A stretch of DNA of 64,000 nucleotides from Candidatus Omnitrophota bacterium (GTDB taxonomy: Bacteria; Omnitrophota; Gorgyraeia; Gygaellales; Profunditerraquicolaceae), in assembly GCA_041662125.1 (NCBI GenBank), contig JBAZTA010000003.1, forward strand, positions 264,962 through 328,961, in the 5' to 3' direction. This document shows, piece by piece, positions 8,151 through 37,169 of this stretch. Position 1 is the first letter of the stretch; the number at the start of each line of letters is the position of its first letter. The translations under genes and the position numbers were made by a program. Below the pieces are notes generated by a model. It did not search any database. It saw only the letters and a program-made list of their open reading frames with translations, and was not told the DNA's origin.

Positions 8151-8181
8151 TATTCAACCCACTAAATCCACGTATCCCGTT

Positions 8182-9318: not shown

Positions 9319-9348
9319 TATGATTATGTGTTTTTTTCATAAAGAACC

Positions 9349-10747: not shown

Positions 10748-12259
10748 TTAATGTATCGCAGGTTGCTTTAGAAATAATCTTTTTATATCCTGCCTATCTA
10801 ATTCACTCAAACTGGCATAATATAAACTTAACGAAACGCAATAGATAACAGACATCTCAATAAGTACTGCAAATATGTTCTGAGGGTACCAATACTTCAG
10901 CATAACGGCAGAAGCTAAATACACAAACACATATATCAGCAGATTACCGCGAATTGACCTTTTAAAGTACTCAACAAACTTAATTTTCAGATTTATGAGT
11001 GATATTCGCAGAGTAAAAGGGAAACCTATCAATATCATTGAAACTGTCAAGCCGGCTGCAGGCGCGATGATCCCCAATCTTTTTATAAAAGTAAGGGTCA
11101 AAACTATATTTGCGGCTACAACTCCCAATTGAATAAAAAGAGGTTTTTTCACAACTCCCTTAGCAGAAAGCATACTGCTTGCTAACTCCAAGGTCCCGTT
11201 AAAAAGCCAGAATACTATAATGATCTTTGCGGGCAGGATACTTTCGCGAAAAGTATCCCCCATCCAGTATATAATAAACGGCTCGGCAAAGACAAAGAGC
11301 ATAAGAATGACCGGTAAAAAGGCCGCAGACATATACTTGGTCCCTTTAAAGACAAGCTGCCGTTGTAATTCATGTTCTCCCCTTCCTTCCATTTCAGACG
11401 CTATTGTCCATGGCGGCGCACCGATCGTAGAATTAATTACCCTTAAGTACGATTGAATATTATAGGCAACCGCATAGGTAGATACCGCAGAAAGCGAGAT
11501 ATAATATCCAATAATGAGGTTATGGATTTGAAATAAAAAACTACTAAGCAATGCGCTGACAAAACAAAAAAAACTGAAATTAAATATGAATTTGAAAGTT
11601 TTAAGTTCTGTATAGGGGAAAGTTATCCTAAAATCATACCTTTTCTTGACAATACAATACAAAACCGTACTCCCCAATATGGTTAAAACCTGATTCACGA
11701 TGAATAATTGAACTATCCCGCACCCTGACATCAAGAGGGCATACGTACATATACCATTTAAAATTTGAACGGATATATTAACCGAAGCATCTAAATCCCA
11801 TAAATTTAATCCCTGGATGAAACCGCGGAATGTATTGATCGGCCAAACCAGCAATGCTGACAAAGCTGCTACTATAAAGAGGTCTCGAGCAACAGCAATA
11901 TTCGCAGGCAGAACTTTAAAGAATTTGACAAAGAATACTGAGAAAAAAAACAATAATAACGATACCGTGATGCCTATCAGCACATAAAAGGTGAACGATG
12001 CATTAACGATCTTATTGACACTCTCGTTGTCCTTTTTTCCGTTATACTCGGAAACATACTTAGTCAATGCCGACATTACGCCAAGATCTAAAAGCCCGAA
12101 ATATCCGGTAACAGTCATGGCAACCAAGTAAACTCCGTAAATTTCTTTTCCGACATATTTAACTATAAAAGGAAAAAGAAAGAAAGAGATCGCAACGCTG
12201 GCGATTCGGTTTGCCGCTAAAAAACTGATATTTTTTCCGATGAGGCGTATTTTCGACAT
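10748..12259 (-). CDS. Polysaccharide biosynthesis protein / Wzx-like oligosaccharide flippase (MOP superfamily)
   Basis: 503 aa, about 12-14 predicted TM helices, typical Wzx/MATE-like topology. No soluble domains. Confidence 0.6.
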   Translation of the reverse strand: MSKIRLIGKNISFLAANRIASVAISFFLFPFIVKYVGKEIYGVYLVAMTVTGYFGLLDLGVMSALTKYVSEYNGKKDNESVNKIVNASFTFYVLIGITVSLLLFFFSVFFVKFFKVLPANIAVARDLFIVAALSALLVWPINTFRGFIQGLNLWDLDASVNISVQILNGICTYALLMSGCGIVQLFIVNQVLTILGSTVLYCIVKKRYDFRITFPYTELKTFKFIFNFSFFCFVSALLSSFLFQIHNLIIGYYISLSAVSTYAVAYNIQSYLRVINSTIGAPPWTIASEMEGRGEHELQRQLVFKGTKYMSAAFLPVILMLFVFAEPFIIYWMGDTFRESILPAKIIIVFWLFNGTLELASSMLSAKGVVKKPLFIQLGVVAANIVLTLTFIKRLGIIAPAAGLTVSMILIGFPFTLRISLINLKIKFVEYFKRSIRGNLLIYVFVYLASAVMLKYWYPQNIFAVLIEMSVIYCVSLSLYYASLSELDRQDIKRLFLKQPAIH

Positions 12260-12282: not shown

Positions 12283-13302
12283 TTATTGGTCAGCTCGATT
12301 AGCAGCTTTATTAGACAGAGAAATATTATGAGCGCATATCCGACACATAGGACTGAGATAATAATTCCCTGACTTGTGCTGACCGCGAAGCTCTTGTATC
12401 TTAGGGCAATTCCAGAGATCTTTCAAACTCGCAGTATTAACGTTGCCTATAGTAATATTGCCTGCTACATCAGTGGCACAAACACAAACCGTGCCATCGG
12501 TCATGACAACCAAACGTTGAAAAGGCTGTTTACAGCAATACTCATGGAGCGGAACATTGAACGGATTGTTTTTCTGAATTGACCCGAATTCCTGGCAGTA
12601 AGAAATAGTAATTTCATCTACCCTTTTATGCCAATACTCATAGAACTCTCTTGTCTCATGCCTGTTTATGCCGGATTCAGTATACTGCAATCGAATGAAC
12701 GGTTTTCTTGATTTTCCCCGTATATCGATCAAGTTTTTAATATTCTCAATGACCGCATCATAATCGGCGCCAATTCTGATCTTTTCATACGTCTGCTTGG
12801 TAAATCCATCGATTGAAATAATAAGTTGATCCAGCTTTGCTTCTACAATTTCACGGCCTATATTTTGATTCATCAGCGTCGCGTTCGTTAACGAGGTAAC
12901 TTCCAAAATACCTTTAGATTTCGCATAACGCACCATATCCATAAAGTTTTTATTCAGCATAGGCTCACCCCGCCAGCTTAATTTCAAAGCGGGGATCCTA
13001 TATTTTGCGCATTCATCGGCAATTTTTTTAAAAGTATCCATCGCCATAAGGGGAACTTTCGTAGTCTTTGCTACGGGGAGCGTTTCATCACTCTGAAAAC
13101 ACATAGAACACCGCAGGTTGCAAACATTGGAAGCTTCTGCGATGACATCCAAAGGGTATTTTCCAACTTTAAATTTACCCGGGTAAGCGTTAAAACGATA
13201 ACGATAGATATAAAATTGAGGATTGAATCCCCCTTTTTTGTAGAGGTTAGCTACCTTTGTAAAGAAACCTGCTTTAATCTTCCAGTTTTTCTTAAGTTTC
13301 AT
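12283..13302 (-). CDS. Radical SAM / SPASM-domain protein (paralog A)
   Basis: 339 aa. 'CNLRCSMCFQ' radical SAM motif. C-terminal cysteine-rich SPASM-like region 'CCKQPFQRLVVMTDGTVCVCATD...CRICAHN'. Confidence 0.75.
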   Translation of the reverse strand: MKLKKNWKIKAGFFTKVANLYKKGGFNPQFYIYRYRFNAYPGKFKVGKYPLDVIAEASNVCNLRCSMCFQSDETLPVAKTTKVPLMAMDTFKKIADECAKYRIPALKLSWRGEPMLNKNFMDMVRYAKSKGILEVTSLTNATLMNQNIGREIVEAKLDQLIISIDGFTKQTYEKIRIGADYDAVIENIKNLIDIRGKSRKPFIRLQYTESGINRHETREFYEYWHKRVDEITISYCQEFGSIQKNNPFNVPLHEYCCKQPFQRLVVMTDGTVCVCATDVAGNITIGNVNTASLKDLWNCPKIQELRGQHKSGNYYLSPMCRICAHNISLSNKAANRADQ

Positions 13303-14300
13303 TGCGTATCTCTTTTTGAATCAAAAGAATCGGGACAATCAGCGCATAGATGCATTTTTTTGAAACCTCCCTGCCGGTGAAGCTTTCTTACCTTCTGCAT
13401 TATTTCTCCCGTCCAGATATCGGGAACCGTTTGAGTCAAAACATCGCCGATAACATACCCCTTTTTCATATCCCGAGGACAAAGCGTTGCAGTACCATCA
13501 CTCAATATGGTCAGCCGCCGCCATAATTCCGCGCAACAAAAATTATCATCCTGTTTATAATTTTCCCTATGATAAAGCCTTTCTTCTCCCGTTTTACAGT
13601 CAAGATAACGTAAGATCGCTATACGGTTTAGTTTACCCGCCCAATAAGCTATAAACTTGTTTTTCTCGGATGGGTCATCTTCATCCATTTCAATAAAATT
13701 CGCCTTAATATGCAGCCTTGACTTAGGGTTCTGGTTACGCTGCCTGATCAAATCTTCAACCGCTTGCATGACCTTTTCAAATCTTGCCCCGATTCGTATT
13801 TTTTCGTATCTTTCTTTATCGGCGCTATCCAGAGAAATAATAAGCCTGTCAAGGCCGGATTCGATAAGTTTACGGTTAAAATCATGCCCCAGGAGAGTGC
13901 CATTGGTATGCATGTTCACATCAATAACTCCCTTTTCTTTCGCATATCTGATTACTTCAAAAAGTTGCGGGTACAGGGTCGGTTCTCCTAACCCGGTCAA
14001 ATTAAAAGCGCATAATCCATGCGTGCACGCTTGGTCTAATATTTTTTTTACCAAATTAAGATCCATATATCCTTTACCGGGGATATATGCCTGCCGGGGA
14101 CACATAGGGCATTTTAAGTTACAGACGTCAACCGCAAAAAGGTCTATCTGCAACGGAACCTTATCAACGATCCCGGCTTGCGGATACTGGTCCCATTTCC
14201 TTCGGTATTCGATCCACTTTTTATCATGGAATACCAAACCCGTTTTTTTGTCCGTGCCTAAAACCTCCGGAGAAATACTTTTTACCTTAACCCGTATCAT
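13299..14300 (-). CDS. Radical SAM / SPASM-domain protein (paralog B)
   Basis: 333 aa. 'CNLKCPMCPR'. C-terminal 'CCAELWRRLTILSDGTATLCPRD...CADCPD'. Shares 'YEKIRIGA', 'RYAK.KGV', 'DRLIISLD' with paralog A. ATGA overlap with paralog A. Confidence 0.75.
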   Translation of the reverse strand: MIRVKVKSISPEVLGTDKKTGLVFHDKKWIEYRRKWDQYPQAGIVDKVPLQIDLFAVDVCNLKCPMCPRQAYIPGKGYMDLNLVKKILDQACTHGLCAFNLTGLGEPTLYPQLFEVIRYAKEKGVIDVNMHTNGTLLGHDFNRKLIESGLDRLIISLDSADKERYEKIRIGARFEKVMQAVEDLIRQRNQNPKSRLHIKANFIEMDEDDPSEKNKFIAYWAGKLNRIAILRYLDCKTGEERLYHRENYKQDDNFCCAELWRRLTILSDGTATLCPRDMKKGYVIGDVLTQTVPDIWTGEIMQKVRKLHRQGGFKKMHLCADCPDSFDSKRDTQ

Positions 14301-14312
14301 GTATTAAACACC

Positions 14313-15374
14313 TCAAGGATTTAACGGCGAGCCTTCAATCATGTTCCACCCTAATGGTGTCCCTTTTTTTATATCCTTACGCGCTTTTTTTCCCAGGACC
14401 CTTTCCCAATAACGGGGATGTAAACCGTGCCCGGGCCTTATAGAGCGGATATTATCTTTCGAAAATTTTTCACCTTTAAAGATATCTTTCACTACAAAAA
14501 CAGACCTGCGAAAGACTCGATTTTCTTTTTGTTTTTCCGTGAGTTCATATGAAACCTTTCCTAAAGCTTTTTCTGCGGTTCGTATATCAGAGACCATTGT
14601 CCTGAATTCTGCCGGTTCAGTCGAGAATGAGCAGTCGGGGCCGGGATCTTTTCGGGAAAGCGTAAGATGCTTCTCTATGATACATGCACCCAGGGCTATT
14701 GAGGCTACGGCAACAGCACTGCCTAAGGAGTGGTCGGAAAGCCCAACAGGAAAGCCGTATACTTTTGAAAGATCAGGAATCGTATTCAAATTCATTTCTT
14801 TAGATGGTGCAGGATACGCGCTGGTACACTTAAGCAAAGCTATTTTCCTGTTTCCCTCATTAAGGACAGTTTGAACTGCCTCATCTATTTCTGGCCTAGA
14901 GGCCATGCCGGTTGAGATGATGATAGGCTTTCCGGTTGCAGCGACCTTCTTTAAAAAAGGAATATCTACCAGCTCAAATGAAGCGACCTTATATGCGGGC
15001 ACTTTCATTTTTTCCAAATAATCAACCGATGTAAAATCAAAAGGGGTTGAGAAAAAGTCAAGCCCAAGGCTGTCACAGGCCTTCTTTAATCGGGGATGCC
15101 ATTGCCAGGGCGTAAACGCTTCTTGATAAAGCCGGTAAAGATTTTTTCCCGCCCAAACTGTCCCTTTAATCTTAAAATATTTGTTTTCACAATCGATAGT
15201 CATAGTATCCGGAGTATATGTCTGGATCTTTACCGCATCCGCGCCCGAATCGGCAGCGGCCTTTATAATACGGAGGGCTTTATTAAAACTCATAGCATGA
15301 TTCGCTGACATCTCAGCAATGATATATACCGGCTTCCCTGGGCCTATAGTTTTCTTATTGATCTTTATGTTCAT
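14313..15374 (-). CDS. pseI: Pseudaminic acid synthase (NeuB/PseI family nonulosonate synthase)
   Basis: 'IIAEMSANHAMSFNKALRIIKAAADSGADAVKIQTY' NeuB-family TIM barrel. C-terminal SAF-like domain. Start trimmed to 'MNIKINKK' with an upstream SD-like AAAGG. Confidence 0.8.
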   Translation of the reverse strand: MNIKINKKTIGPGKPVYIIAEMSANHAMSFNKALRIIKAAADSGADAVKIQTYTPDTMTIDCENKYFKIKGTVWAGKNLYRLYQEAFTPWQWHPRLKKACDSLGLDFFSTPFDFTSVDYLEKMKVPAYKVASFELVDIPFLKKVAATGKPIIISTGMASRPEIDEAVQTVLNEGNRKIALLKCTSAYPAPSKEMNLNTIPDLSKVYGFPVGLSDHSLGSAVAVASIALGACIIEKHLTLSRKDPGPDCSFSTEPAEFRTMVSDIRTAEKALGKVSYELTEKQKENRVFRRSVFVVKDIFKGEKFSKDNIRSIRPGHGLHPRYWERVLGKKARKDIKKGTPLGWNMIEGSPLNP

Positions 15375-15390
15375 GAATTTTAACCTTTCA

Positions 15391-16089
15391 TCACCCAAAA
15401 ATACGCAGAGCCATAAATGCTTCGGCAAATAAATAGCCTGATTCTGAACCTCTAACCTTCGCCAGTGCCCTTAAAACTTCAGGCGACCGAGGATGAGGAT
15501 CCAGGCGCGCTTCACCTTTGTAAGTTTGCATTGAATTGATCTTTGCAGTAAGATCTGCTTCGGAAACCTCAACATAGACGTTTGGTTCCCATTGCGCTGG
15601 ACGCAGGTACCCGGTGCTGCTGGGGACTTCACCGCATAAAACAGAGATATGCGCATCGGCCGCCGGCCGCGCAGCAACAACGACCGCATTATGGCAATAT
15701 TGATGGTCAATATTCGTACAATAGCGATGATGGGTCAAGATCAAGTCGGGTTTTACGCGGGCAATAATTGCCTCCATCCAATGGACTATTTCTAACAATG
15801 AACTTTTATCCATTTCATTATCAGCGAATTTCCCAAGATAAATATGTTCCTTTGAAACACCTAAGACAGCACAAGCCTTCTGGCAATCTTTTCTTAATGC
15901 GGAGAGTGCGGCTTTCCTTGATTTTAATGATGCTGCGTTTCGACGGCCATGAATGCCTGTCGCGGGGATCGCGACATGAACCTCTGCGCCAAGACGGGTC
16001 AGTTTTTTGATAGTCGCACCTGCCGCTAATGTCTCATCGTCGGGATGCGCGAAAAGTGTCAAAATGGTAGAATAGTCCTTCAGGATCAT
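15391..16089 (-). CDS. PIG-L/LmbE-family N-acetylglucosaminyl deacetylase
   Basis: 232 aa. 'FAHPDDE' zinc-binding motif of the LmbE/PIG-L family. Confidence 0.75.
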   Translation of the reverse strand: MILKDYSTILTLFAHPDDETLAAGATIKKLTRLGAEVHVAIPATGIHGRRNAASLKSRKAALSALRKDCQKACAVLGVSKEHIYLGKFADNEMDKSSLLEIVHWMEAIIARVKPDLILTHHRYCTNIDHQYCHNAVVVAARPAADAHISVLCGEVPSSTGYLRPAQWEPNVYVEVSEADLTAKINSMQTYKGEARLDPHPRSPEVLRALAKVRGSESGYLFAEAFMALRIFG

Positions 16090-16787
16090 TTCCCTCTCCT
16101 TGATTTAGATTGAGTGATTTTAGCTCGGGCATAAAGCGCGCCTTCGCGCATTACAGGGTGAGAAAATTCATACCGTAAACCACCCTGTTCAATAAATGCC
16201 TTTGGATATTCGTCTGCGTCCAGCATGCGGATATGATCGTAGATCTTTCCCAAGGTTTTATGCTTGAGCGCTATCTTACTTTGATCAGGCCGGCGCCGTA
16301 AAAACATTACCGCTTTACCCTGCTGAGCAACTGGCTTTGGTTCCTGCATGATTATTTCCTTGATCATTTTCGCGATGATCTTTGAAGAACGGATATAAAT
16401 ATCCTGGGCCCTTCCTCGCAATGAAAGCTGCCGTTTAAAATAAACCGGCCCGGCATCTAAGACGCCGGTCATTCTTAATGCCGATATTTTAGTGTTTGTA
16501 AACCCGCGGACGATCAAATTCTGTAGAGGGCTGCCCCCCCGCCCAAACGGGACATCTGTCTCGTGAAAACAAACACATTCATAAGAATTCACGATCGAAG
16601 ATGGCACTCGCTTGCTCCAGTGGGGGAAAAAAATATAACGCGGTTTAAAGCGTTTTATTCTTTCAAGTGTTAAATCTTTTGCAGCGGTAATGAGATGCCA
16701 ATTACCTGGATATTTGCTAATACTATTCCTGTAAGCTTTAATATTCCACGGACGTATTGTTGCAATAATATATACTTTTTTACTCAT
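16086..16787 (-). CDS. Formyltransferase-family protein (putative sugar N-formyltransferase)
   Basis: 233 aa. 'HETDVPFGRGGSPLQN' matches the H-x-S/T-x-L-P-x-x-R-G formyl transferase motif. Lacks the Fmt C-terminal tRNA-binding domain. Confidence 0.65.
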   Translation of the reverse strand: MSKKVYIIATIRPWNIKAYRNSISKYPGNWHLITAAKDLTLERIKRFKPRYIFFPHWSKRVPSSIVNSYECVCFHETDVPFGRGGSPLQNLIVRGFTNTKISALRMTGVLDAGPVYFKRQLSLRGRAQDIYIRSSKIIAKMIKEIIMQEPKPVAQQGKAVMFLRRRPDQSKIALKHKTLGKIYDHIRMLDADEYPKAFIEQGGLRYEFSHPVMREGALYARAKITQSKSRRGK

Positions 16788-16799
16788 GGCATCATATTT

Positions 16800-17519
16800 C
16801 TATTGCTGTTTTTGTAAAGGCACATCATAGTCTAGGCGCCCGGAACGTATGATCGCAAGGCTTTTTGGCCCTTCATTGAAAAGAAGATCAATTGCCGACA
16901 TATGCGATATAAAACCTTCAAACATTTGCTTATATACCGGATGCTCATATCGATGATATACCAGGGTTATCCCTTCTTGAGCAAAGACATTATCTTGTTC
17001 TATATAGTCAGCTGCACGTACGGGAGAAAGATATATGTCAGCCTCCAGATAATGACAAATATTTGTCAACAACTTAACCTTTTCGCCGGAAACTGGGATT
17101 TCGGATGCTCTCATAAGCTTTGTTTTGACTCCAAGCTGTTTTTTTAAGAAATTGATCGTGGCTACGTTTAATGTTAAAAGATACTCCCATGATTGATCAT
17201 AGAGCGCTTTCAACTCATCACAATACTGTTTCCAGTACTCAGCACGTTTATAATACTGTTCAATGGTCCCCCAGTGTTTCCTGCACCACGGTGAAGAATT
17301 GCCGGTCTTTACCTCGTTCATTTTCTGTCCCAAGTTTTGAATAACCGGAACGGTTAACCATTTCGACTGATTTTCTGCCGTCTTAATTCTATTGCGTTGC
17401 TGCCACGCCTGTTTTTCGAACTGAACCGTATCCAATAGTACGAACACATCCGCCGTATCCATGAGGTCAAAATACCCTATCCAGGGCAGATATGTCGGCT
17501 GCATGATTACCGCTATCAT
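16800..17519 (-). CDS. WbqC-family protein (function unknown, O-antigen/nonulosonate clusters)
   Basis: 239 aa. N-terminus 'MQPTYLPWIGYFDLM' is the hallmark of the WbqC-like family. Confidence 0.6.
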   Translation of the reverse strand: MIAVIMQPTYLPWIGYFDLMDTADVFVLLDTVQFEKQAWQQRNRIKTAENQSKWLTVPVIQNLGQKMNEVKTGNSSPWCRKHWGTIEQYYKRAEYWKQYCDELKALYDQSWEYLLTLNVATINFLKKQLGVKTKLMRASEIPVSGEKVKLLTNICHYLEADIYLSPVRAADYIEQDNVFAQEGITLVYHRYEHPVYKQMFEGFISHMSAIDLLFNEGPKSLAIIRSGRLDYDVPLQKQQ

Positions 17520-19345: not shown

Positions 19346-20248
19346 TTACCTCATCCAAAGGGTAGGGTTTAAAATCTTTTCATCTACTTGATCAAAATAC
19401 TGCGAGACTAAAGGGAGTAAATTGCGTGCCGGTTTTCTTCCCCAGCTTCCCAGATTCTCCTCTAGCTGTTCAGGTGTTTCTACCCCGATAACCAGTTTTG
19501 CCGTAGGAAATCTTTCTTTTAGATATCCCAATGCTAATTCATGTTTCGTGACATTAAGCTGTTGGGCAAGTGATTTTATTTTTTCAAGCACCGGCTTGGC
19601 AAAAGACATTTGCCCAGAAAGCTCGTTTGGATCCATAAGAATAAGACCCTGAAGAAAAACACTCCGGATATATATCTGCCGGCCCGCTTTCTCTGCCAGT
19701 TCAAAAACTCTCTGCTTCTCAAATCTGCTGTCCAGGATATTAGCAGGTAGTTGCACCATATCAAACCCGTTAATAAGCAACGCTTCTAAAGCTCTTTTGG
19801 GAGAATAAACCGAAACACCTACCTTTTTGATCTTTCCGGACTTAACAAAACTATGCAAAATCTCACCAAGGCCGTTTGGCAACTGACTCAAAAGGTCTTC
19901 TTTATGAAGCATCAATCCATACAAAGATGAAACCCCTAATCTTTCTAAAGACCTATTCAAGGCTTCAGACATGATCTGAGGATCGCAATGGTTGAGTTCA
20001 GGATTGATTTTACTGATAACTTGTGCCTCGTGCGAAATGCTCAGTTGAGAAAATGCCGTTCCCAGCATTTTCTCGCTTCCTCCATAGTCTTGTGCGGTAT
20101 CAAACTCTCTAATCCCATTTTCCCAAGCTGTCCGTATTATTTCAGTCACCCTCGCCTGGTCAGGTTGACCAGTTTTGTTGGCTACACCATACAAAAGTCC
20201 AAACTGTACGGTCCCTAACACAAAGGGATGAAAGTTTCCTGGATTCAT
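19346..20248 (-). CDS. Aldo/keto reductase
   Basis: 300 aa. 'EFDTAQDYGGSEKMLG' AKR signature region. Confidence 0.7.
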   Translation of the reverse strand: MNPGNFHPFVLGTVQFGLLYGVANKTGQPDQARVTEIIRTAWENGIREFDTAQDYGGSEKMLGTAFSQLSISHEAQVISKINPELNHCDPQIMSEALNRSLERLGVSSLYGLMLHKEDLLSQLPNGLGEILHSFVKSGKIKKVGVSVYSPKRALEALLINGFDMVQLPANILDSRFEKQRVFELAEKAGRQIYIRSVFLQGLILMDPNELSGQMSFAKPVLEKIKSLAQQLNVTKHELALGYLKERFPTAKLVIGVETPEQLEENLGSWGRKPARNLLPLVSQYFDQVDEKILNPTLWMR

Positions 20249-20263
20249 AATAAAGAATAATGC

Positions 20264-21580
20264 TTACGTCAGGCGTTTAAAGCCGGCAGTTGACGGTTTT
20301 CCTCTTAATTGAAGCTCAACATCCCCTGTTCTCAAAGCTTTTGAAATATGGGCAAATGTCTCATCGACTGCAATAAGATACCGCTTCACGTGAGACGGCT
20401 GATGTGCGTACATGGAATAAAACGATGTAGACGCCAAAAATCCTCTTTCGAGCATTAATTGTACAAATAACGCCTTTAAAACTAACGTAAAGTCGTATTC
20501 GAACATAAAATGGCTAAGCGGGGCAATCCCGGCAACATGGATCTTTATCCCATGTTTTTCAGCCAGCATCTTCCAGCCTTCCTGGACCTGCTTTCCTACC
20601 AATACCAGATGCTTTCCTACGTCGCATACCTGATGTTTCTTTATGGTCGCCAATGCAGCAGTAGGCCCAATGCGTTCTGTCCACATAGTACTGCTGATAA
20701 ATGTCTTTTGCGCAGCATCCATAAAGCGTTCTTTGCCTATAATCGCAGCTATTGGATAGCCATTGCCTAAAGCTTTTGAGAATACGGCTATATCTGGCTC
20801 AATATCATAAACTAAGTGTGCTCCGCCTGAATTCAGTCGAAACCCGGCAGAAATCTCATCTATCACAAAAACAGCTTTTGTCTTGTCTGCAAGAGAACGA
20901 ACCTCTTTAAAAAACCCCGGTTCAGGCTCATCATCCCGTATGGGCTCCATAACAATAGCAGCCAGATCTTTTCCATGCTGAGCTATAATAGTATTAAGCT
21001 CATCAATATGATTATATCGAAAAGGAATTGCTGTCCCGGTTAAACCTTTCGGGACTCCGCGTGGATCCAATCCTGATAAAAGATGCTCACCTAATGAATC
21101 TTTAGTTCCTAAATTCGCCGAAAGATACCAATCATGCCACCCATGATACCCGCAAAAAGCCACGACATCTTTACCCGTATACGCCCGGGCGATCCTAACA
21201 GCTATAGCCATTGATTCTCCACCAGTGCGGGCATAGCGCACTTTATCTGCCCACGGATGAATCTGACACAGCAAATCAGCAAGTTCAACTTCTTCCGGGC
21301 AATTTAAAGAAGAGCTCGATCCTTTTTTTATCGCTTTACACACAGCTTCATCAACATCATCATCGGCGTAGCCAAGCACATTTGCACCAATGCCGCTGAT
21401 GCTCATGTCAATATACTTATTCCCATCTAAATCCCAAACGTGCGCTCCTTTTGCCTTACTATAATAGCCGGGCCATACTCCGAGTGAAAACTGATCAGGC
21501 CGTTTTGAAAGAAGCTGGGTCATACCGGGTATACGCTGCTTTGCGCGCTGCTGCATTAATTGGCTTTTGCTGGTATTCAT
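20264..21580 (-). CDS. Class III (GSA-aminomutase-like) PLP-dependent aminotransferase
   Basis: 438 aa. 'GAHVWDLDGNKYIDMSISGIGANVLGY' is typical of the class III aminotransferase N-terminal region. No heme-pathway context. Confidence 0.7.
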   Translation of the reverse strand: MNTSKSQLMQQRAKQRIPGMTQLLSKRPDQFSLGVWPGYYSKAKGAHVWDLDGNKYIDMSISGIGANVLGYADDDVDEAVCKAIKKGSSSSLNCPEEVELADLLCQIHPWADKVRYARTGGESMAIAVRIARAYTGKDVVAFCGYHGWHDWYLSANLGTKDSLGEHLLSGLDPRGVPKGLTGTAIPFRYNHIDELNTIIAQHGKDLAAIVMEPIRDDEPEPGFFKEVRSLADKTKAVFVIDEISAGFRLNSGGAHLVYDIEPDIAVFSKALGNGYPIAAIIGKERFMDAAQKTFISSTMWTERIGPTAALATIKKHQVCDVGKHLVLVGKQVQEGWKMLAEKHGIKIHVAGIAPLSHFMFEYDFTLVLKALFVQLMLERGFLASTSFYSMYAHQPSHVKRYLIAVDETFAHISKALRTGDVELQLRGKPSTAGFKRLT

Positions 21581-22667: not shown

Positions 22668-23825
22668 CTATAGTAGTTTAAGGACCGCTAAAATAACCCG
22701 GGCAACATCATTATCTGTCATCGCGGGAAAAAGAGGCAAAGACAAACATTCTTTATAATACTTTTCAGCCTCGGGAAAATCCTTCCTGGAAAAATGAAAA
22801 TTCTTTTCATAAAAAGGTTGGCGGTACACAGGGATATAATGCACCTGGGTGCCGACACCTTCCCAAGTGAGCTTCTCAATAAACTCCTTCCGTGACAACT
22901 TTAGCTTCGCAAAATCGATACGCACGACATATAAATGGTACGCGCACAATGCATCATCCGTAGTAACCGGACGCAGGCAGGAATGTTTTTTGAACGCGGC
23001 ATTATAGAGTGAAACAATATGCCGGCGCCGGGCAATAAAACTCTCGATCTTCCTTAATTGGCTTATCCCCAGGGCAGCTTGAATATCCGTCAAACGATAA
23101 TTAAACCCCAGTTGGCGCATCTCATAGTACCAGGGCCCGGGGCTATTTTTTATTAAAAGAGGGCTTCTCGTAACTCCGTGCGACCGCAGGCAACAAAGAA
23201 AGTCATACAATTTTTTATTATTCGTCATGACCGCCCCCCCCTCACCGGTCGTAATCGTTTTAACCGGATGAAAAGAAAAAATAGTCATGTCTGAATATTT
23301 ACCATTACCGACTCGACTGCCGTCAAGATAGCGGCTGCCGATCGCATGAGCGGCATCTTCGATCACAAAACAATTCTTACGTTTGGCAAAAGCGGATATT
23401 TCTTTCATCAGAGCAGGACGTCCTGCAAAATGGACAGGGATAATGACCTTGGTATCCTTTCGAATAACGCCTTCCAGGGCCCCCAATGATACATTCACCG
23501 TTTCTGCATCGATATCCGCAAACAAGGGAATAATACCGTTATACACCAAAGCATTCACCGACGCCAAAAAAGTGATCGGCGATGTAACACCAGTCGCCCC
23601 CTTCTTCAGGCCAAGTGCAGCTACTGCCAAATGAAGGGCGGCTGTGCCGCTGGAGACAGCAACACAATACTTCGCGCCAGTATATGCGCACAACGCGCGT
23701 TCAAATTCAAAAACACGCGGGCCTTGCGTTAAAAATTGACTTTTAAGAACCTTCACTATTGATAGGACATCATCATCATCGATCAGTTGTCTTCCATAGG
23801 GCAGGCAGGAACGAATGCGTTTCAT
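22668..23825 (-). CDS. pseC: UDP-4-amino-4,6-dideoxy-N-acetyl-beta-L-altrosamine transaminase (DegT family)
   Basis: 'LPYGRQLIDDDDVLSIVKVLKSQFLTQGPRVFEFE' and Lys motif 'FSFHPVKTITTGEGGAVMT'. Immediately follows pseB. Alternative upstream Met at 23840. Confidence 0.8.
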   Translation of the reverse strand: MKRIRSCLPYGRQLIDDDDVLSIVKVLKSQFLTQGPRVFEFERALCAYTGAKYCVAVSSGTAALHLAVAALGLKKGATGVTSPITFLASVNALVYNGIIPLFADIDAETVNVSLGALEGVIRKDTKVIIPVHFAGRPALMKEISAFAKRKNCFVIEDAAHAIGSRYLDGSRVGNGKYSDMTIFSFHPVKTITTGEGGAVMTNNKKLYDFLCCLRSHGVTRSPLLIKNSPGPWYYEMRQLGFNYRLTDIQAALGISQLRKIESFIARRRHIVSLYNAAFKKHSCLRPVTTDDALCAYHLYVVRIDFAKLKLSRKEFIEKLTWEGVGTQVHYIPVYRQPFYEKNFHFSRKDFPEAEKYYKECLSLPLFPAMTDNDVARVILAVLKLL

Positions 23826-23826
23826 A

Positions 23827-24828
23827 TCAGTGTGCCTCATTTTTTAGATTTTTAACCATATCGGCAAGCTCATCAAGGCTGAGGCGCTCCCGATTCAAGT
23901 CACTGCGGTACTCAAAACCACCCGGTAAAGGTTTTCCGCGTTTATATTTCGAAAAGGCTTCATCTAAATACAAAAACTGCGGCAACACAACATAATATTC
24001 CTTAAGATCAAAAGCTATGCGCGCCTCGTCTTCAGAAATCAATGTTTCATGGATCTTTTCACCAGGACGGATACCGATCGGTTTTAATCGGCACTCCGGC
24101 TCAATAGCCTTTGCTAAATCCACTACCCGCATAGACGGGATCTTAGGAATAAAAATCTCACCGCCAACAGATTCGTCCAATGCTTTGAGCACCAAATCAA
24201 CGCCTTGATCAAGTGTTATCCAAAAACGCGTCATTCGTTCATCGGTAATTGGAAATTCTTTAATACCCCGATTCTTGAGCTCTAGGAAAAAAGGGATCAC
24301 ACTTCCCCTGGACCCGACAACATTTCCATAACGCACGACTGAAAATTTTACCCGGGCGCCGCCATACGCATTCGCCGCGACAAAGAGCTTCTCAGCAACA
24401 AGTTTGGTAGCGCCATAAAGATTAGCCGGGCTAACGGCCTTATCCGTTGACAAAGCGATAACTTTCTTAACTCCAGCGTCAATGGCCACATCAACGATAT
24501 TATTAGCGCCATCGACATTGGTTCTGACCGCTTCAGTGGGATTGTATTCCAAGGCAGGTACCTGTTTCAAAGCAGCAGCATGAATAATATAGTCAACTCC
24601 TTCAAAAGCGCGGTGCATACGATTTTTATCGCGGATATCTCCGATAAAATAACGCATAGATGGATACTGTTTATCCGAGAAAATCTTTTCCATCTCATGC
24701 TGTTTATATTCATCACGGCTGAAAATGATCAGTTTTGCCGGTTTATACCGTTTGAGCACTATTTCTGTGAATTTATGCCCAAAAGACCCTGTTCCCCCAG
24801 TAATTAAAATAGTCTTATTATTTAACAT
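23827..24828 (-). CDS. pseB: UDP-N-acetylglucosamine 4,6-dehydratase (inverting), PseB/FlaA1 family
   Basis: 333 aa. 'MLNNKTILITGGTGSFGHKFTEIVL' PseB/CapD-like N-terminus. Strong SD 'AAGAAGGGG' upstream. Confidence 0.85.
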   Translation of the reverse strand: MLNNKTILITGGTGSFGHKFTEIVLKRYKPAKLIIFSRDEYKQHEMEKIFSDKQYPSMRYFIGDIRDKNRMHRAFEGVDYIIHAAALKQVPALEYNPTEAVRTNVDGANNIVDVAIDAGVKKVIALSTDKAVSPANLYGATKLVAEKLFVAANAYGGARVKFSVVRYGNVVGSRGSVIPFFLELKNRGIKEFPITDERMTRFWITLDQGVDLVLKALDESVGGEIFIPKIPSMRVVDLAKAIEPECRLKPIGIRPGEKIHETLISEDEARIAFDLKEYYVVLPQFLYLDEAFSKYKRGKPLPGGFEYRSDLNRERLSLDELADMVKNLKNEAH

Positions 24829-24916: not shown

Positions 24917-26362
24917 CTATTCCTTGATCTCAGGCTTACCTAAACCTTTTTTTTCAAAAACAAAATAGAGAATAATGCCCAAGAAAATAGGCAAAATCTG
25001 CATGCGGTAACGGCAAACGGTACCCAAATTATAACCGACAAACCCATAAGCAATTGACCAAACCACAATTAAAGAAATTGCCCATATGAAAAAGGGGGTA
25101 AATAATTCACGCCAGCGAACCTTAAAAACAGCAATAATAAATAAAATCAGTAAGACAGTGTCTTCAAGGCCAGCCATGAGCCCGAAAATATTTTTAACCT
25201 CTCCCGGCAAAGGCCTGAATAAAACCGTAAATACCCCGCGAGGGACAAAAAGAGCCAAATCTTTGAGTCCTCGGTATTTAATCTTTACAGTCACCCCTGA
25301 ATTTTCATCAATTGCAGTCTCATACGCCGGCTTATTTTCACCCACAGGATCCTTAGGATCACGAGCCAAAGCGTTATCACCGGAATCTGCTTTTTTAAAC
25401 ATTTTACCATCAGGTTTTGCTTCAAGCAGACTACCCCCGATTGAAAATGTTGTGAATCTTTTATTAGCAAAAATTGAAAGATCCTTGAACGATTTAAGAT
25501 AAAATATCTTCGTGACCCCATGAGTTGAAAACACCAATATTATGATTGAAGAAACAAAAACTAACACATAACCTATTTTTTTAAAACTATTTCTATTCAA
25601 ACACATCATACGGACTACCATTAACAAAACGGGCAAGCCTAAAATAATTCCCAGCCATAAGCGGATATATACCGAAGTGATCAACCCCAAAATTATAAAC
25701 ACGGAAGAAGAAAACGATTCAGTTCTTATTAACTTGACGACGCCATAGCTATAGACGGCTATGGCGATAAGGAGAATCGGTTCTTTGCCGATAACAGAAG
25801 ACCAAAAAAGTATCGATGGGAATAATGCAAAGACGTATAAAAGGCGCACGATATCTCTTCGCAAAAACTCAGCCGCAGCAAGATAAAAAACATAGCAGGC
25901 AAAAAGGCCGATCATTCCAAAACTTGCCTTTATAGCATGAAACGAGTCAAGGAAACTGTTACGCAGGACCTGAATAAGTAATATCACCGGATTGGATGGC
26001 CCCAGGACCTCCATCCTTCTCCATTCGCGGATATGATGCGTAGCAGCGTTAAAATACCCATATGAATCAACCTGATAATGGTGCTCGTAAAAAAGCATCA
26101 AACCAAGCATGACAAAACACTTCACCATCCAAATATAGCCGAGAGCTTTCTTATGAGCTGATGGCACAGGCCAAAAATATATCGTAACTCCCAAAAAAGC
26201 CGCCCATGCTACCCCGATCACATAATCTAAACGGATATTCTTTTGCGGTATACGTTTACCCAAAATCTCAACCAGCTTTAAAAAATGCGGCAGCGTATAA
26301 ACAAAAACTAAAAACCCGACCACTATTAACAAAATTAAAAAAAGATTATTCTTTTTCAACAC
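24917..26362 (-). CDS. Polytopic membrane protein with large soluble loop (possible Wzy-like polymerase/ligase or membrane glycosyl/acyl transferase)
   Basis: About 480 aa with at least 10 hydrophobic segments and a roughly 130-aa hydrophilic loop. No ATG near the 5' end, so GTG/TTG start at about 26362/26359 was inferred just after the upstream stop. Confidence 0.35.
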   Translation of the reverse strand: MLKKNNLFLILLIVVGFLVFVYTLPHFLKLVEILGKRIPQKNIRLDYVIGVAWAAFLGVTIYFWPVPSAHKKALGYIWMVKCFVMLGLMLFYEHHYQVDSYGYFNAATHHIREWRRMEVLGPSNPVILLIQVLRNSFLDSFHAIKASFGMIGLFACYVFYLAAAEFLRRDIVRLLYVFALFPSILFWSSVIGKEPILLIAIAVYSYGVVKLIRTESFSSSVFIILGLITSVYIRLWLGIILGLPVLLMVVRMMCLNRNSFKKIGYVLVFVSSIIILVFSTHGVTKIFYLKSFKDLSIFANKRFTTFSIGGSLLEAKPDGKMFKKADSGDNALARDPKDPVGENKPAYETAIDENSGVTVKIKYRGLKDLALFVPRGVFTVLFRPLPGEVKNIFGLMAGLEDTVLLILFIIAVFKVRWRELFTPFFIWAISLIVVWSIAYGFVGYNLGTVCRYRMQILPIFLGIILYFVFEKKGLGKPEIKE

Positions 26363-26372
26363 AACACCTTTT

Positions 26373-27413
26373 TTAGTTGTCCTTGCATAAAAAATGCCAA
26401 TATGGCAGTGTATCAGAAATAACCACACTTTTAAATGAATCCTGCAACGCGGCAATATCTTTCTTACTAAACCGTTGTTCTATACGCGTAAAAAACCGGT
26501 CATAAACATCTTGACGGATCCGCGCAAGCGTTTTTCCTCTATAGCCTTCATACAGCGGGACAGAACAACGCAAATTCATTTTATGCAACAAAGCTCCGAG
26601 TGAAATTAACGGAAGATACACGGTAATTGCGACAACACTGGTAAATACTGACCGGAAAAATTCATTTCTAACATGCGATACCGCTAAACGGACCATGGTT
26701 ACCAGGGAAAGTAAAACTTGGAAAAATCTCGGCCGGTTATCAAGTGAATAATACAAATATATCAAAAGAGCAGGTGAATAACTTTTAAGTTTTCTGACGG
26801 TTGCCAAAGCGTTAACCGGCATATGGTGCAAAACACCAAGACAAAACAGGAAATCAGCGAACGGGGTTGCAAAGGGGAGACAATTGATATCAGCCATAAA
26901 AAAAATAGCATTATCGCGGCGGCGCAGGTTCCTGCGGGCCACAAAGATCGCTTCTGAAAAATCAACAAGCACCAATTCACGGCAGGCATCCCCAAGGAAA
27001 TAACTCCAGCGGCCGATACCGCAACCTAAATCGCAGACACGCGCATGCTTCAAATCGTCAATATTGACGAGGTCAAAATATTGTGAAAACTCTTCTCTAT
27101 GCTCAGGTAAAATATCGGGAAACTGCTGCCATTCTGACCCAAAGGTAAATTGGATATCTTCCGCGAAATCAGCTGAAACAGCAGTTTTTTTAATACTGCC
27201 GGCCAGCCTTTTTTGAAGCGCAGGCGGATATTGATCAGGCTCAAGCAAGATAATAACATCATCAACAATCGGATACCTGCGATTGTTGACAATAAGTAAA
27301 TCACCTTTAAGCTCGATATTGCGGGTTCCAAAAATATCTTTCAGGCTAGCGATCTTATTGTCATAAAATAGAGTTTTTCCGGGCTTTACACTATTTTGTT
27401 TAAGCTCGTTCAT
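26373..27413 (-). CDS. Class I SAM-dependent methyltransferase with hydrophobic C-terminal extension
   Basis: 346 aa. Motif I 'VCDLGCGIGRWSYFL'. C-terminal about 100 aa hydrophobic. Confidence 0.65.
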   Translation of the reverse strand: MNELKQNSVKPGKTLFYDNKIASLKDIFGTRNIELKGDLLIVNNRRYPIVDDVIILLEPDQYPPALQKRLAGSIKKTAVSADFAEDIQFTFGSEWQQFPDILPEHREEFSQYFDLVNIDDLKHARVCDLGCGIGRWSYFLGDACRELVLVDFSEAIFVARRNLRRRDNAIFFMADINCLPFATPFADFLFCLGVLHHMPVNALATVRKLKSYSPALLIYLYYSLDNRPRFFQVLLSLVTMVRLAVSHVRNEFFRSVFTSVVAITVYLPLISLGALLHKMNLRCSVPLYEGYRGKTLARIRQDVYDRFFTRIEQRFSKKDIAALQDSFKSVVISDTLPYWHFLCKDN

Positions 27414-28341: not shown

Positions 28342-29280
28342 TCACCCCAGCCCTAACTGACGCATCACCTTCGGATGGTCGATTTCAAACTGATCGGCAT
28401 GAGGACGTAAACACGCATCATCTTTTGTGCGAGTCACTAGTACGACATTACCAGGATTGATTACCTGTTGGGCCTCAACCGCCAGATGCAGCCAGGAACC
28501 GTTCACACTTTTTGAATCATCAAGCACCAGAAGTTTCTTGGTACGCCGGACGTTGTTTAAAATCGTACTCCAATTGACCGGAAGCATGGCATTGACAGAA
28601 AAAAGCGTTGCGTCAAGACCATGTTTTTTTAGGTCATGGTAAAGCAAGAGCCCCTGCGGAAAGGAAAAGTTAAAACAGGCAATCGTCAGGCCACTGCCAT
28701 GGGAATATTGGAATATTTCGGCGTTTTCATCACAGGAAACACCCTCAGTTGTTTCCAAAACCTCCTGGCGGCATAGGCGCTGACTGATACCGATAATACG
28801 AAAACCGGGAGCAATGAGATGTTTACTCAAAATGAATTCCGCGTCAGCTTTATTCGTGATCGCATACCCGGGAATACGGGCAATGGAACAAAAATCAGCA
28901 AAATTATTCAAAGAGGATTGCGGCCCTTCATAGCCGCTATCAACAACGACATTGACTATAGTAAAAGAACTTCGAGCCTTCCTGCCCCTGACCAAGTTAT
29001 AGGTATTCACAAGCTGGTCGATACCCAGGAGCAGGAAATCCTGCTGTTTCATGAAAAATATTGATGAAACCCCGTTCAGCATTAAACCAAACCCCGTCCC
29101 CACAAGGGTATTTTCGCAATTAGGGGTATTCAAAACAAACTGGCCGTCTTGATTTTTGAGGCCTTTGGTCAGGCCTCCGATACAGCTTCCGGCGGCGATA
29201 TTTTGCCCAAACATGACTAATGGCTTAATTTCAGAAACTCGCTGCCGGATCAATCCATTGATGTGCGTAATATAATTCAT
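28342..29280 (-). CDS. Thiamin-diphosphate-dependent E1 component beta-subunit-like protein (transketolase-like Pyr/C-terminal domains)
   Basis: 312 aa. N-terminal region aligns in pattern with pyruvate/acetoin dehydrogenase E1-beta ('...FGQNIAAGSCIGGLTKGL...NTPNCENTLVGTGFGLMLNG'). ATGA-coupled to the E1-alpha-like gene. Confidence 0.65.
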   Translation of the reverse strand: MNYITHINGLIRQRVSEIKPLVMFGQNIAAGSCIGGLTKGLKNQDGQFVLNTPNCENTLVGTGFGLMLNGVSSIFFMKQQDFLLLGIDQLVNTYNLVRGRKARSSFTIVNVVVDSGYEGPQSSLNNFADFCSIARIPGYAITNKADAEFILSKHLIAPGFRIIGISQRLCRQEVLETTEGVSCDENAEIFQYSHGSGLTIACFNFSFPQGLLLYHDLKKHGLDATLFSVNAMLPVNWSTILNNVRRTKKLLVLDDSKSVNGSWLHLAVEAQQVINPGNVVLVTRTKDDACLRPHADQFEIDHPKVMRQLGLG

Positions 29281-30206
29281 CCAAGCTCCTTGCGTACGTC
29301 CGCCAGGACGTTTTTCGCCAGCGTCTTTAGAAAATCATTTTCAAAATGTTTAGTCAAAACATATACGGGATCTCCCTCTGTCTCCTCAATGACCGGCCAA
29401 TCAGATAATTCTACCGTGGGAGCTGCCCCCGCATGATAATTAATATATTTTCCTTCAGGATACTCATCGGTCTTCATACGCCAGTCACCAAGGGTGCGAA
29501 GGGAAACTTCAATGATTACCGGAGTTTTTTCAGCCAGTGCTTTTGCGCGCGCTTTCTCCAGCAGCGGGATATATTCAAAAACGTCATTTCCTTTAATTAA
29601 TTCATATGGTATTTTAAAAGCAGAGGCAAAACGATCGAGCGCTATATCGCATCTGCGCTCATGGATCTCTGTTGCCAAGGACCAATTATTGTTCTCGACA
29701 ATAATCAATGCCGCAGTAGCATATGTCTTCATCATCAGTAAGCTCTCTTGGAAAACCCCTTCTTCAATAGCCCCATCACCGATGACAACGATAGCCACAC
29801 CTTTTGTTTTCTTAACGGTGTTTCCTAAGGCTACACCGGTAGCAACAGCCATTTGGTTCCCCAGGATACTTGAGGTATACAAAACTCTTTTCTCCTCATT
29901 GTAAAGGTTCATGCATCCCAATTGGCCGCCAGCCTCTCCTGAATCAAGGCATAAGTATTCAGCGATCTTTTGTTTTAATGAAGGGCTGAGCGCCAAATTA
30001 TAATGGATATTCCGGTGCGTCAATAATAACCAGTCGTTTTCTTTCATTATAGAAGCCAGCGCTACCGCTATAGCCTCATGCCCTAATGCCAAGTGAACCG
30101 GGATTTTAAATTGTTTTTGTTTATTTCCCTGGTTTACCAGCATCTGGCAGAACCGAAGACGCAAGACTTCCCGAGCATTTTTTTTATTATCTTTTTTAGT
30201 AGGCAT
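29277..30206 (-). CDS. Thiamin-diphosphate-dependent E1 component alpha-subunit-like protein
   Basis: 309 aa. 'GHEAIAVALASI' (GQEA-like). ThDP-binding 'GDGAIEEGVFQESL...ENNNWS'. Confidence 0.7.
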   Translation of the reverse strand: MPTKKDNKKNAREVLRLRFCQMLVNQGNKQKQFKIPVHLALGHEAIAVALASIMKENDWLLLTHRNIHYNLALSPSLKQKIAEYLCLDSGEAGGQLGCMNLYNEEKRVLYTSSILGNQMAVATGVALGNTVKKTKGVAIVVIGDGAIEEGVFQESLLMMKTYATAALIIVENNNWSLATEIHERRCDIALDRFASAFKIPYELIKGNDVFEYIPLLEKARAKALAEKTPVIIEVSLRTLGDWRMKTDEYPEGKYINYHAGAAPTVELSDWPVIEETEGDPVYVLTKHFENDFLKTLAKNVLADVRKELG

Positions 30207-32231: not shown

Positions 32232-32259
32232 AGGTATTTTATCGCAGCAAGACTGCGCT

Positions 32260-37165: not shown

Positions 37166-37169
37166 GCTT

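Follow-up and report, generated by a model that had tools for sequence, protein, structure and literature searches.

Why do a class-III aminotransferase and an aldo/keto reductase lie among genes for a nonulosonic acid, when neither is one of the six enzymes of the canonical pseudaminic acid (Pse) pathway? The question is raised by a 64,000-nucleotide stretch of DNA from a Candidatus Omnitrophota bacterium (GCA_041662125.1, contig JBAZTA010000003.1, positions 264,962 to 328,961), referred to here as the window. An initial annotation, made from the sequence alone, placed an aminotransferase of 438 residues (here AT3) and an aldo/keto reductase (AKR) inside a nonulosonate block. Both genes are indeed found there, on the minus strand, between a cytidylyltransferase (CT) and PseG-like pair and a formyltransferase-like gene. 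Neither belongs to the six-enzyme pathway, as had been said, yet synteny and gene fusions make both integral to the nonulosonate block. AKR, AT3, and CT very probably belong together as one tailoring unit integral to the nonulosonate pathway. We further propose that AKR oxidizes the C8 hydroxyl of a nonulosonate, or of its cytidine monophosphate (CMP) form, and that AT3 then turns the ketone into an 8-amino sugar by transamination, a reading that we place just short of an even chance.

AT3, AKR, and CT recur together across bacteria and archaea

From pseB through the radical-SAM pair, successive genes, all on the minus strand, are separated by −38 to +32 nucleotides (nt), with 17 nt between the formyltransferase-like gene and AT3, 15 nt between AT3 and AKR, and 3 nt between AKR and CT. 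The G+C content is flat across the block (0.41 to 0.44), without a break. Because of these small gaps and the flat composition, the block from PseB to the Wzx flippase, AT3 and AKR included, is one operon. A scan for promoters and terminators between 12 and 27.5 kb found promoter-like sites at the level expected from shuffled sequence and weak, mostly intragenic terminator-like hits.

A survey of one genome per species found relatives of AT3 at at least 592 species-level loci. Neighboring genes were counted at the best 80 of these (loci with L numbers; 55 to 80% AT3 identity), onto which the proteins of the window were mapped. The bacterial hosts of the best 80 are Firmicutes, Proteobacteria, Nitrospirota, Chloroflexi, Planctomycetota, Verrucomicrobiota, Bacteroidota, Spirochaetota, Elusimicrobiota, Zixibacteria, and several lineages of the candidate phyla radiation (CPR), and the archaeal hosts are Bathyarchaeia, Methanoperedens, Methanomicrobiales, and Thaumarchaeota. 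At 50 of the 80 loci an SpsF-like CT was encoded on the strand of AT3 and no more than 3 kb away, and a CT of any kind was within 3 kb at 55. AKR was found within 1.5 kb on the same strand at 32 loci and a Gfo/Idh/MocA oxidoreductase (GFO) within 3 kb on the same strand at 15; one or the other was within 3 kb at 46, and AKR, GFO, or a short-chain dehydrogenase (SDR) was present somewhere in the locus at 71. A NeuB-family synthase was encoded at 59 of the 80 loci, PseC at 46, and PseB at 39, in the last case upstream of AT3 and with 47 to 72% identity. The order PseB-PseC-AKR-CT-AT3-PseG-PseI is recurrent (L078, L080, L072, L036, L053, and others), and 13 genes are syntenic with the window in a metagenome-assembled genome (MAG) of the Planctomycetota-Verrucomicrobiota-Chlamydiota group (L082). 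The best database matches of AT3, AKR, and CT fall on the same contigs in a near-identical rank order.

Other loci place AT3 in different company. In a flagellin glycosylation island of Pseudoalteromonas (L029) the order is FliD-Maf-AT3-GNAT-CT-NeuB, with GFO, AKR, and PseC farther along. Loci of the Nitrospirota type (L041, L052, and L071) have a LegF-like CT, a Gfo/Idh/MocA protein of about 328 amino acids (aa), and AT3, then an SDR, giving the order CT-GFO-AT3(-SDR). In alphaproteobacterial loci AT3 stands beside a formyltransferase-like gene in a legionaminic acid (Leg)-type cluster with PtmE, NeuB, CT, and LegG. Since AKR accompanies AT3 in some contexts and GFO does so in L041, L052, and L071, the oxidoreductase partner has been swapped non-orthologously while AT3 keeps 55 to 60% identity. 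In an alignment of the 80 AT3 sequences, 112 of 438 positions show at least 95% identity, and a comparison of 40 Pse-type with 15 Leg-type contexts shows a systematic difference at a single position.

The same partners are found joined to AT3 in single proteins. In an exhaustive HMMER search, 1995 of 1.84 billion cluster representatives matched at E ≤ 1e-30, and fusions were surveyed in the best 150 50%-cluster representatives (P numbers), with domains assigned by BLAST against proteins of the window and of related loci. Of these 150, 56 were at least 520 aa long and were counted as fusions. CT was fused to AT3 in 39, GFO in four, AKR in three, and NeuB in one; one further protein of 1026 aa (P0359) joined GFO, CT, and AT3. 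Pfam confirmed the partner domain in nine of ten sampled fusions, the tenth (P0376) having an aminotransferase domain only. CT-AT3 fusions also occur in the genome loci L008, L015, L019, and L081. Within the 80 loci they are seen in Syntrophus (a CT-AT3 protein of which is P0117), Smithella, and Anaerolinea, and a PseC-AKR and a PseI-CT fusion are present as well. An N-terminal Amidohydro_2 domain (PF04909) was fused to AT3 in at least four of the 150 (P0243, P0283, P0355, and P0245).

Because of the fusions to CT, NeuB, and oxidoreductases, AT3, an oxidoreductase, and CT appear to be one functional unit on the late pathway. That the two genes could be an unrelated inserted operon is ruled out by the gaps of 3 to 17 nt, the even G+C content, the 13-gene synteny, the recurrence of AKR-CT-AT3 with pseB, pseC, and pseI in many phyla, and the natural fusions.

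AT3 is HemL-like in fold and lacks a HemL motif

AT3 is a fold-type I pyridoxal phosphate (PLP) enzyme that scored 132.3 bits against Pfam Aminotran_3 (PF00202; cutoff, 30.5). Its top NCBIfam models were HemL-like (PRK06209, 267 bits; GntE, 229; TIGR00713 hemL, 202), all far under their curated cutoffs. For the hemL equivalog TIGR00713 the score was 201.7 bits against a cutoff of 527.3, and five AT3 relatives from related loci reached 191 to 217 bits; no NCBIfam model was at its cutoff for AT3 or for these five. The PLP lysine motif AVFSKALGNGYP is present, with Lys269 within AVFSKALG (AVFSK269ALGNGYP). Lys269 and Asp241-Glu242, the DE(I) motif, are invariant across 25 homologues, and by these residues AT3 looks catalytically competent. 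Arg27 is likewise invariant, and AT3 further has a GYHGWHDWYLS loop and a GFKRL tail at its C terminus. An AlphaFold model built from 25 close homologues was poor (mean predicted local distance difference test score, 58.6).

The initial annotation had called AT3 "GSA-aminomutase-like," after glutamate-1-semialdehyde (GSA) aminomutase, or HemL. At the level of the fold this holds: both enzymes have the PLP lysine, an Arg in the N-terminal part of AT3 lines up with Arg32 of HemL, and HemL is the best PDB sequence match of AT3 (146 bits). Beyond the fold the label fails, both by the hemL score and in that the Glu406 motif "FEAGF" of HemL is deleted. In the alignment to 2cfb, AT3 reads FLASTSF---YSMYAH against YLAPSQFeagFTSLAH, "eag" being an insertion relative to AT3; Glu406 of the HemL motif APSxFEAGF is numbered as in the Synechococcus enzyme. 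The missing motif fits a true transaminase rather than a mutase. The gene context, too, is one of glycans rather than tetrapyrroles, and a HemL paralogue for heme synthesis is ruled out by score, motif, and context. Because the PDB scores of AT3 lie close together (HemL, 146; aminoglycoside C-6′ aminotransferases, 136; FumI, 129; mycosubtilin AMT domain, 127 bits), AT3 would be a separate branch of the HemL-like aminotransferases, one tied to nonulosonate clusters. Members of the family (P0002, P0006, P0008, and others) are named "glutamate-1-semialdehyde 2,1-aminomutase" by JGI and, generically, "aminotransferase class III-fold" by NCBI. For the family as a whole, HemL is very likely the wrong name.

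AKR and an SpsF-type CT complete the cassette

AKR matched Pfam Aldo_ket_red (PF00248) with 108.8 bits (cutoff, 24). When it was aligned with AKR structures, the catalytic tetrad Asp50/Tyr55/Lys80/His115 proved intact, in the segments FDTAQDY (Asp50 and Tyr55), VISK (Lys80), and MLHKED (His115), so that this protein also looks catalytically competent. The 2669 homologues with E ≤ 1e-10 are led by proteins that share contigs with the best AT3 matches.

The adjacent gene, which the initial annotation took for pseF, is actually an SpsF-type CT and part of the same module. It scored 33 bits against the PseF equivalog TIGR03584 (cutoff, 205.7), matched a structural-genomics "cytidylyltransferase" in the PDB (6oew, E=1e-39), and is named SpsF in the source databases. 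CT is presumably a CMP-nonulosonate synthetase and would be the third member of the cassette. No canonical PseF-like sequence was found anywhere in the 64-kb window, and no GNAT-family PseH was found among its scanned open reading frames (ORFs). The idea that CT is simply the PseF of these loci is weakened by two of them that hold a true PseF beside the SpsF-like CT. In a Patescibacteria MAG (L072), a PseF scoring 280 bits lies in one gene run (7622-9995) with the SpsF-like CT of an AKR-CT-AT3 triad, and in an Endomicrobiales MAG (L055) a canonical PseF lies about 6 kb from the SpsF-like CT; the pair PsaF and EpaA of Acinetobacter baumannii is a parallel. In L063 and L010, AT3 is paired with a PseF-like CT only. 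The neighboring gene that had been labeled pseG is better called PseG-like (124 bits on TIGR03590, under the equivalog cutoff of 153.6); in L082 its counterpart and CT are fused in a single gene of 597 aa.

CTs of this kind have been placed at the end of the pathway. A Bacillus subtilis spsF mutant still accumulates Leg, and in a synthetic six-enzyme operon sufficient for FlmG-dependent flagellin modification in Escherichia coli, FlmC was placed as the final enzyme. SpsF-type and FlmC-type CTs thus act after the sugar is made.

This order bears on one alternative, in which AT3 and its oxidoreductase make a pool of amino-sugar phosphate (e.g., GlcN-6-P from hexose phosphate) and the CT-like protein is an early nucleotidyltransferase. 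Precursor roles of this sort had earlier been attributed, reportedly by Schoenhofen et al. in 2009, to PtmA, PtmF, and PtmE of the Campylobacter Leg pathway. Leg-type loci do place AT3 among a PtmF-like GFO, a PtmA-like SDR, and PtmE-like genes, and a common precursor would account for the invariance of AT3 across Pse and Leg contexts. The late action of SpsF- and FlmC-type CTs (the spsF mutant and the FlmC operon) speaks against it, however, as do the lack of another CT for the final activation in most loci and the lack of an associated mutase or kinase in the cassette. ElaA (PtmF-like) and ElaC (PtmA-like) are, moreover, now assigned to C8 redox chemistry on CMP-Leg. We regard a role in precursor supply as very improbable.

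Known cassettes with an oxidoreductase and a CT act at C8

In prophages of A. baumannii, EpaA, which has an N-terminal CTP_transf_3 and a C-terminal Aldo_ket_red domain, and EpaB, an SDR, turn Pse5Ac7Ac into 8-epi-Pse5Ac7Ac, as judged by nuclear magnetic resonance of capsule after complementation (PMC12053666). EpaB is 41.5% identical to AciE, and a swap of AciE and AciB alters the C8 configuration. Since EpaB resembles AciE in this way, the SDR would be the stereo-determining reductase, and by elimination the AKR domain of EpaA is probably the oxidizing partner. The window has the same two domains in adjacent genes 3 nt apart where EpaA has them fused, a likeness that holds at the level of Pfam domains. 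EpaAB act on a Pse-pathway product by way of a ketone formed at a carbon that bears a hydroxyl, and a canonical PseF is present alongside, as in L072 and L055. The second enzyme differs: in EpaAB it is an SDR and the outcome is epimerization, whereas in the window it is a class-III aminotransferase. The window block contains no SDR of the EpaB type, and AT3 stands in that place. A search of a phage collection for EpaA-like CT or AKR proteins returned nothing relevant. A fusion of an SpsF-like CT to an AKR, followed by a dehydrogenase, is also on record in a Pse cluster of Vibrio and Moritella (PMC7371886).

A second cassette, ElaABC, leads to 8-epi-Leg. ElaB is a CT, ElaA is a Gfo/Idh/MocA protein proposed to convert CMP-Leg to CMP-8-keto-Leg, and ElaC is an SDR that reduces the 8-keto group (CMP-Leg5,7Ac2 to the 8-epimer) (PMC13656337). 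Here, too, a CT is combined with an oxidoreductase that makes a CMP-8-keto-nonulosonate, and its order is matched by the CT-GFO-AT3(-SDR) of L041, L052, and L071 and by the natural GFO-CT-AT3 protein P0359. ElaABC differs from the window in using a GFO, a LegF-type CT, and an SDR where the window has an AKR, an SpsF-type CT, and an aminotransferase; neither a GFO nor an SDR was found in the window block. The window cassette may therefore be read as the EpaAB/ElaABC architecture with a transaminase replacing the second oxidoreductase.

Oxidation followed by transamination has a precedent in an eight-carbon sugar. The Kdo8N pathway of Shewanella, reportedly described by Gattis et al. in 2013, is said to consist of the oxidase KdnB, the aminotransferase KdnA, and KdsB. 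Its logic is alike in that a hydroxyl of a 2-keto-3-deoxy ulosonic acid is oxidized, the carbonyl is transaminated, and a CTP_transf_3 enzyme carries out CMP activation, the window matching it in gene types alone. It is unlike the window cassette in its iron-type alcohol dehydrogenase, its different aminotransferase subfamily, its eight-carbon substrate, and the oxidation of a primary rather than a secondary alcohol.

The arrangement of these genes is already on record. In Aeromonas it is listed for group I flagellin glycosylation islands (PMC7874193), and the lipopolysaccharide (LPS) locus of Legionella pneumophila Sg6/12 has PseG, a "GSA aminomutase," a cytidylyltransferase, an "aryl-alcohol dehydrogenase-like" gene, DegT, and CapD (PMC3694923); a function was proposed in neither case. 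Content and order are the same as in the window, pseB-pseC-AKR-"pseF"-class III aminotransferase-pseG-...-pseI. The window locus is unlike that of Aeromonas in that it belongs to an Omnitrophota MAG and to a polysaccharide (Wzx) rather than a flagellar locus.

A proposed route to an 8-amino nonulosonate

In the proposed route, PseB, PseC, an N-acyl- or formyltransferase, the PseG-like hydrolase, and PseI would make a sugar of the pseudaminic acid type, and CT would activate it to the CMP-nonulosonate or take over the modified sugar. AKR, acting as an NAD(P)+ dehydrogenase, would turn a secondary hydroxyl into a ketone; C8-OH is the most likely one because EpaAB and the ElaABC epimerases use the methyl-ketone position. 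AT3, with an external amino donor, would then give an 8-amino-8-deoxy (5,7,8-triamino) nonulosonate, and the new amine could be N-formylated by the neighboring formyltransferase-like enzyme. The identities of the genes, their intact catalytic motifs, the tight packing of the operon, and the conservation, synteny, and fusions are observed; which substrate is used, which carbon is attacked, in which direction AKR works, and whether the chemistry comes just before or just after CMP activation are what we infer. Among the alternatives raised in the initial annotation, the gain of an additional amino group from a keto intermediate best fits the comparative evidence and the EpaAB and ElaABC precedents. 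The other role raised there, in a 3-hydroxybutyryl-type or other acyl side chain, found no supporting evidence. The products could form an undescribed class of sugars, 5,7,8-triamino-3,5,7,8,9-pentadeoxy-nonulosonic acids (8-amino-8-deoxy Pse or Leg), made at or next to the CMP-sugar stage through the 8-keto intermediate common to Epa, Ela, and the acinetaminic acid (Aci) enzymes; we hold this to be possible, though on balance somewhat doubtful.

One flagellin sugar may be relevant. In Aeromonas hydrophila AH-1, flagellin bears a single Pse-like sugar, of 403 Da, some fragment ions of which are 1 m/z off acetylated Pse; the resolution was low, the formula given by the authors has no nitrogen, and the subgroup of the strain is not stated (PMC4691044). 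Since a nominal mass that is odd requires an odd number of nitrogens, the value gives a weak hint of a third nitrogen, but it is equally compatible with an acetamidino or amino-acyl group.

Several observations weigh against the 8-amino product. A nonulosonate with a third backbone amino group was not found in the literature searched, though this is no more than an absence of evidence. Reduction is the usual direction for AKRs, and the role of oxidase is one that we infer for this protein; the activities of AT3, AKR, and CT are likewise assigned by sequence and context. The oxidoreductase is absent within ±10 kb of AT3 at nine of the 80 loci. Minimal loci such as L078 encode one N-acetyltransferase only, so that the new amine would be free or would share that enzyme. 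The fusions of Amidohydro_2 to AT3 do not fit the model, and the loci with both PseF and an SpsF-like CT (L072 and L055) make the exact role of CT in it less certain. Finally, Pse and Leg differ at C5, C7, and C8, and the indifference of AT3 to the two contexts, with its single distinguishing position, suits a common, stereo-independent substrate better.

Such a substrate could be the other end of the sugar. Oxidation and transamination at another hydroxyl, with C4-OH as the candidate, would give a 4-amino-4-deoxy sugar. The configuration at C4-OH is the same in Pse and Leg, and an AT3 without positions that separate the two may read the shared C1-C4/CMP end; the fusions and the synteny fit this equally well. 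The characterized relatives of the partner enzymes, EpaAB and ElaABC, both act at C8, however. Class-III omega-transaminases typically accept methyl ketones, and the 8-keto-9-deoxy sugar is such a ketone. We consider amination at C4 distinctly unlikely.

AT3 and AKR could also supply a side chain: from a small keto acid or amino acid they would make an acyl unit with a hydroxyl or amino group (e.g., glyceroyl, hydroxybutyryl, or alanyl) for attachment to N5 or N7. The invariance of AT3 across Pse and Leg contexts suggests one common small substrate. In L029 and L067, AT3 has genes for AMP-binding ligases nearby, and the window has N-tailoring genes (PIG-L, WbqC, and two formyltransferase-like genes). 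The minimal loci L078, L080, and L072 lack ligases and extra acyltransferases, however, and the fusion partners of AT3 are CT, NeuB, and sugar-type oxidoreductases rather than ligases, acyl carrier proteins, or acyltransferases. For the families of the partner oxidoreductases, moreover, it is C8 of the sugar itself at which chemistry has been documented. Supply of a side chain is unlikely.

The cassettes that act at C8 also raise the possibility of stereo-inversion. AT3 could serve as a PLP epimerase, or as a shuttle that deaminates and re-aminates C5 or C7 after deacetylation, with AKR acting at C8, to give a new Pse or Leg stereoisomer as in the Aci/8ePse series. The class-III-fold PDB matches of AT3 do include a racemase (9wrf) and a 6′-epimerase/aminotransferase (9au3), the window block encodes a PIG-L deacetylase, and cassettes that form C7 and C8 isomers are known beside CTs. 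A deacetylase accompanies AT3 in only 7 of the 80 loci, however, and the known isomer cassettes consist of two oxidoreductases with no aminotransferase; epimerization at C7 could proceed by enolization of the 8-keto sugar without one. Inversion by AT3 seems quite improbable, and we retain oxidation and transamination at C8 as the preferred proposal.

Tailoring genes around the cassette

The formyltransferase-like protein encoded before AT3 has an intact motif of the Asn-His-Asp type (INGHSSRLPQQRGG ... VDEGIDNGD). It may be a stand-in for PseH at N7 or may acylate the amine made by AT3. Its homologue adjoins AT3 in L082, L039, and L066/67/70, and the trio of WbqC-like, short formyltransferase-like, and PIG-L genes also occurs in L082 and L002. 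In Candidatus Kuenenia, a comparable pair of deacetylase and formyltransferase has been linked to a CMP-nonulosonate that bears an N-formyl group together with a free amine. Two Leg-type loci with AT3 have similar content: L041 (4558-6116) has formyltransferase-like and PIG-L genes, and L067 (11336-15190) has HisH/HisF-type amidotransferase genes and a 461-aa ORF without a Pfam match. Because of the gene content of these two loci, AT3 appears to travel with other N-tailoring functions.

All ORFs of at least 150 aa in the window are on the minus strand. Annotation covered 470-38222, and the 36 ORFs scanned there are all consistent with one very large glycan-synthesis region (Table 1), which also encodes a GT4 glycosyltransferase, FkbM, and other methyltransferases.

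Table 1. Annotated features of the window (positions numbered from its first nucleotide)
Feature	Position	Strand	Evidence or remark
Second DegT aminotransferase	1649-2794	-	
B12-binding radical-SAM enzyme	2776-4275	-	
ORF without Pfam match	8182-9318	-	
B12-binding radical-SAM enzyme	9349-10737	-	
Wzx flippase	10748-12259	-	
Two radical-SAM/SPASM genes	12283-13302 and 13299-14300	-	Directly after pseI
PseI pseudaminic acid synthase (NeuB family)	14313-15428	-	TIGR03586, 492 bits (cutoff, 340)
PIG-L deacetylase	15391-16089	-	Pfam
Short formyltransferase-like (Formyl_trans_C_2)	16086-16787	-	Pfam
WbqC-like	16800-17519	-	Pfam
PseG-like nucleotide-sugar hydrolase, 347 aa	17516-18559	-	TIGR03590
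SpsF-type CTP_transf_3 cytidylyltransferase (CT), 257 aa	18569-19342	-	PF02348, 101 bits
Aldo/keto reductase (AKR), 300 aa, ATG start	19346-20248	-	PF00248
AT3, class-III aminotransferase, 438 aa, ATG start	20264-21580	-	PF00202
Formyltransferase-like, 345 aa	21598-22635	-	PF02911 and PF00551
PseC aminotransferase (DegT family)	22668-23840	-	TIGR03588, 484 bits (cutoff, 423.5)
PseB-like 4,6-dehydratase (Polysacc_synt_2)	23827-24828	-	PF02719, 331.8 bits
ORF without Pfam match	24917-26455	-	
ORF without Pfam match	28342-29280	-	
E1-type thiamine pyrophosphate enzyme	29277-30206	-	
ORF without Pfam match	31140-32309	-	
GHMP kinase and NTP-transferase/HAD pair	32260-34469	-	
dTDP-sugar 3,5-epimerase	35355-35915	-	
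Sugar C-methyltransferase	35918-37216	-	

The two B12-binding radical-SAM enzymes of this region are possible C-methylases of the sugar, and homologues lie near AT3 in 8 of the 80 related loci. The radical-SAM/SPASM pair is syntenic in L001, L002, and L082, with 72 to 76% identity, and SpsF-like CTs show weak matches to TIGR04321 ("spiro-SPASM"), a family whose N terminus is CT-like. Because of this synteny after pseI and these weak matches, there are hints of radical-SAM tailoring of CMP-nonulosonates. The four ORFs without a Pfam match are 312 to 512 aa long. Large proteins without a Pfam match also flank the cassette elsewhere (584 aa in L081, 609 aa in L082, 520 aa in L029, and 602 aa in L067). 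Both these and the four ORFs may be unrecognized nonulosonate transferases.

Implications

Nonulosonic acids cap flagellins, capsules, and LPS and determine recognition by phages, antibodies, and the immune system, and epimerization at C8 already shifts capsule typing and virulence in Acinetobacter. The AT3-AKR gene pair is on record in several genera; the reaction, the unity with an SpsF-type CT, the many fusions, and the breadth across bacteria and archaea are not described in the available literature. A family conserved at 55 to 80% identity from Omnitrophota to Bathyarchaeia and CPR lineages, and repeatedly fused to the CMP-activating enzyme, marks a gap in the pathway map. Genes annotated as "hemL-like" and "aryl-alcohol dehydrogenase-like" in such loci should be treated as pathway members.

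If AT3 does add a third amino group, its products would be a new class of sugar with a different charge, possibly zwitterionic, and may explain unassigned odd-mass flagellin glycans such as that of A. hydrophila AH-1. The enzymes would be of use for the chemo-enzymatic synthesis of modified sialic acid analogues. Further, the 8-keto-CMP-nonulosonate would be a general branching hub, and the chemistry would be present in hundreds of species from more than 20 phylum-level groups.

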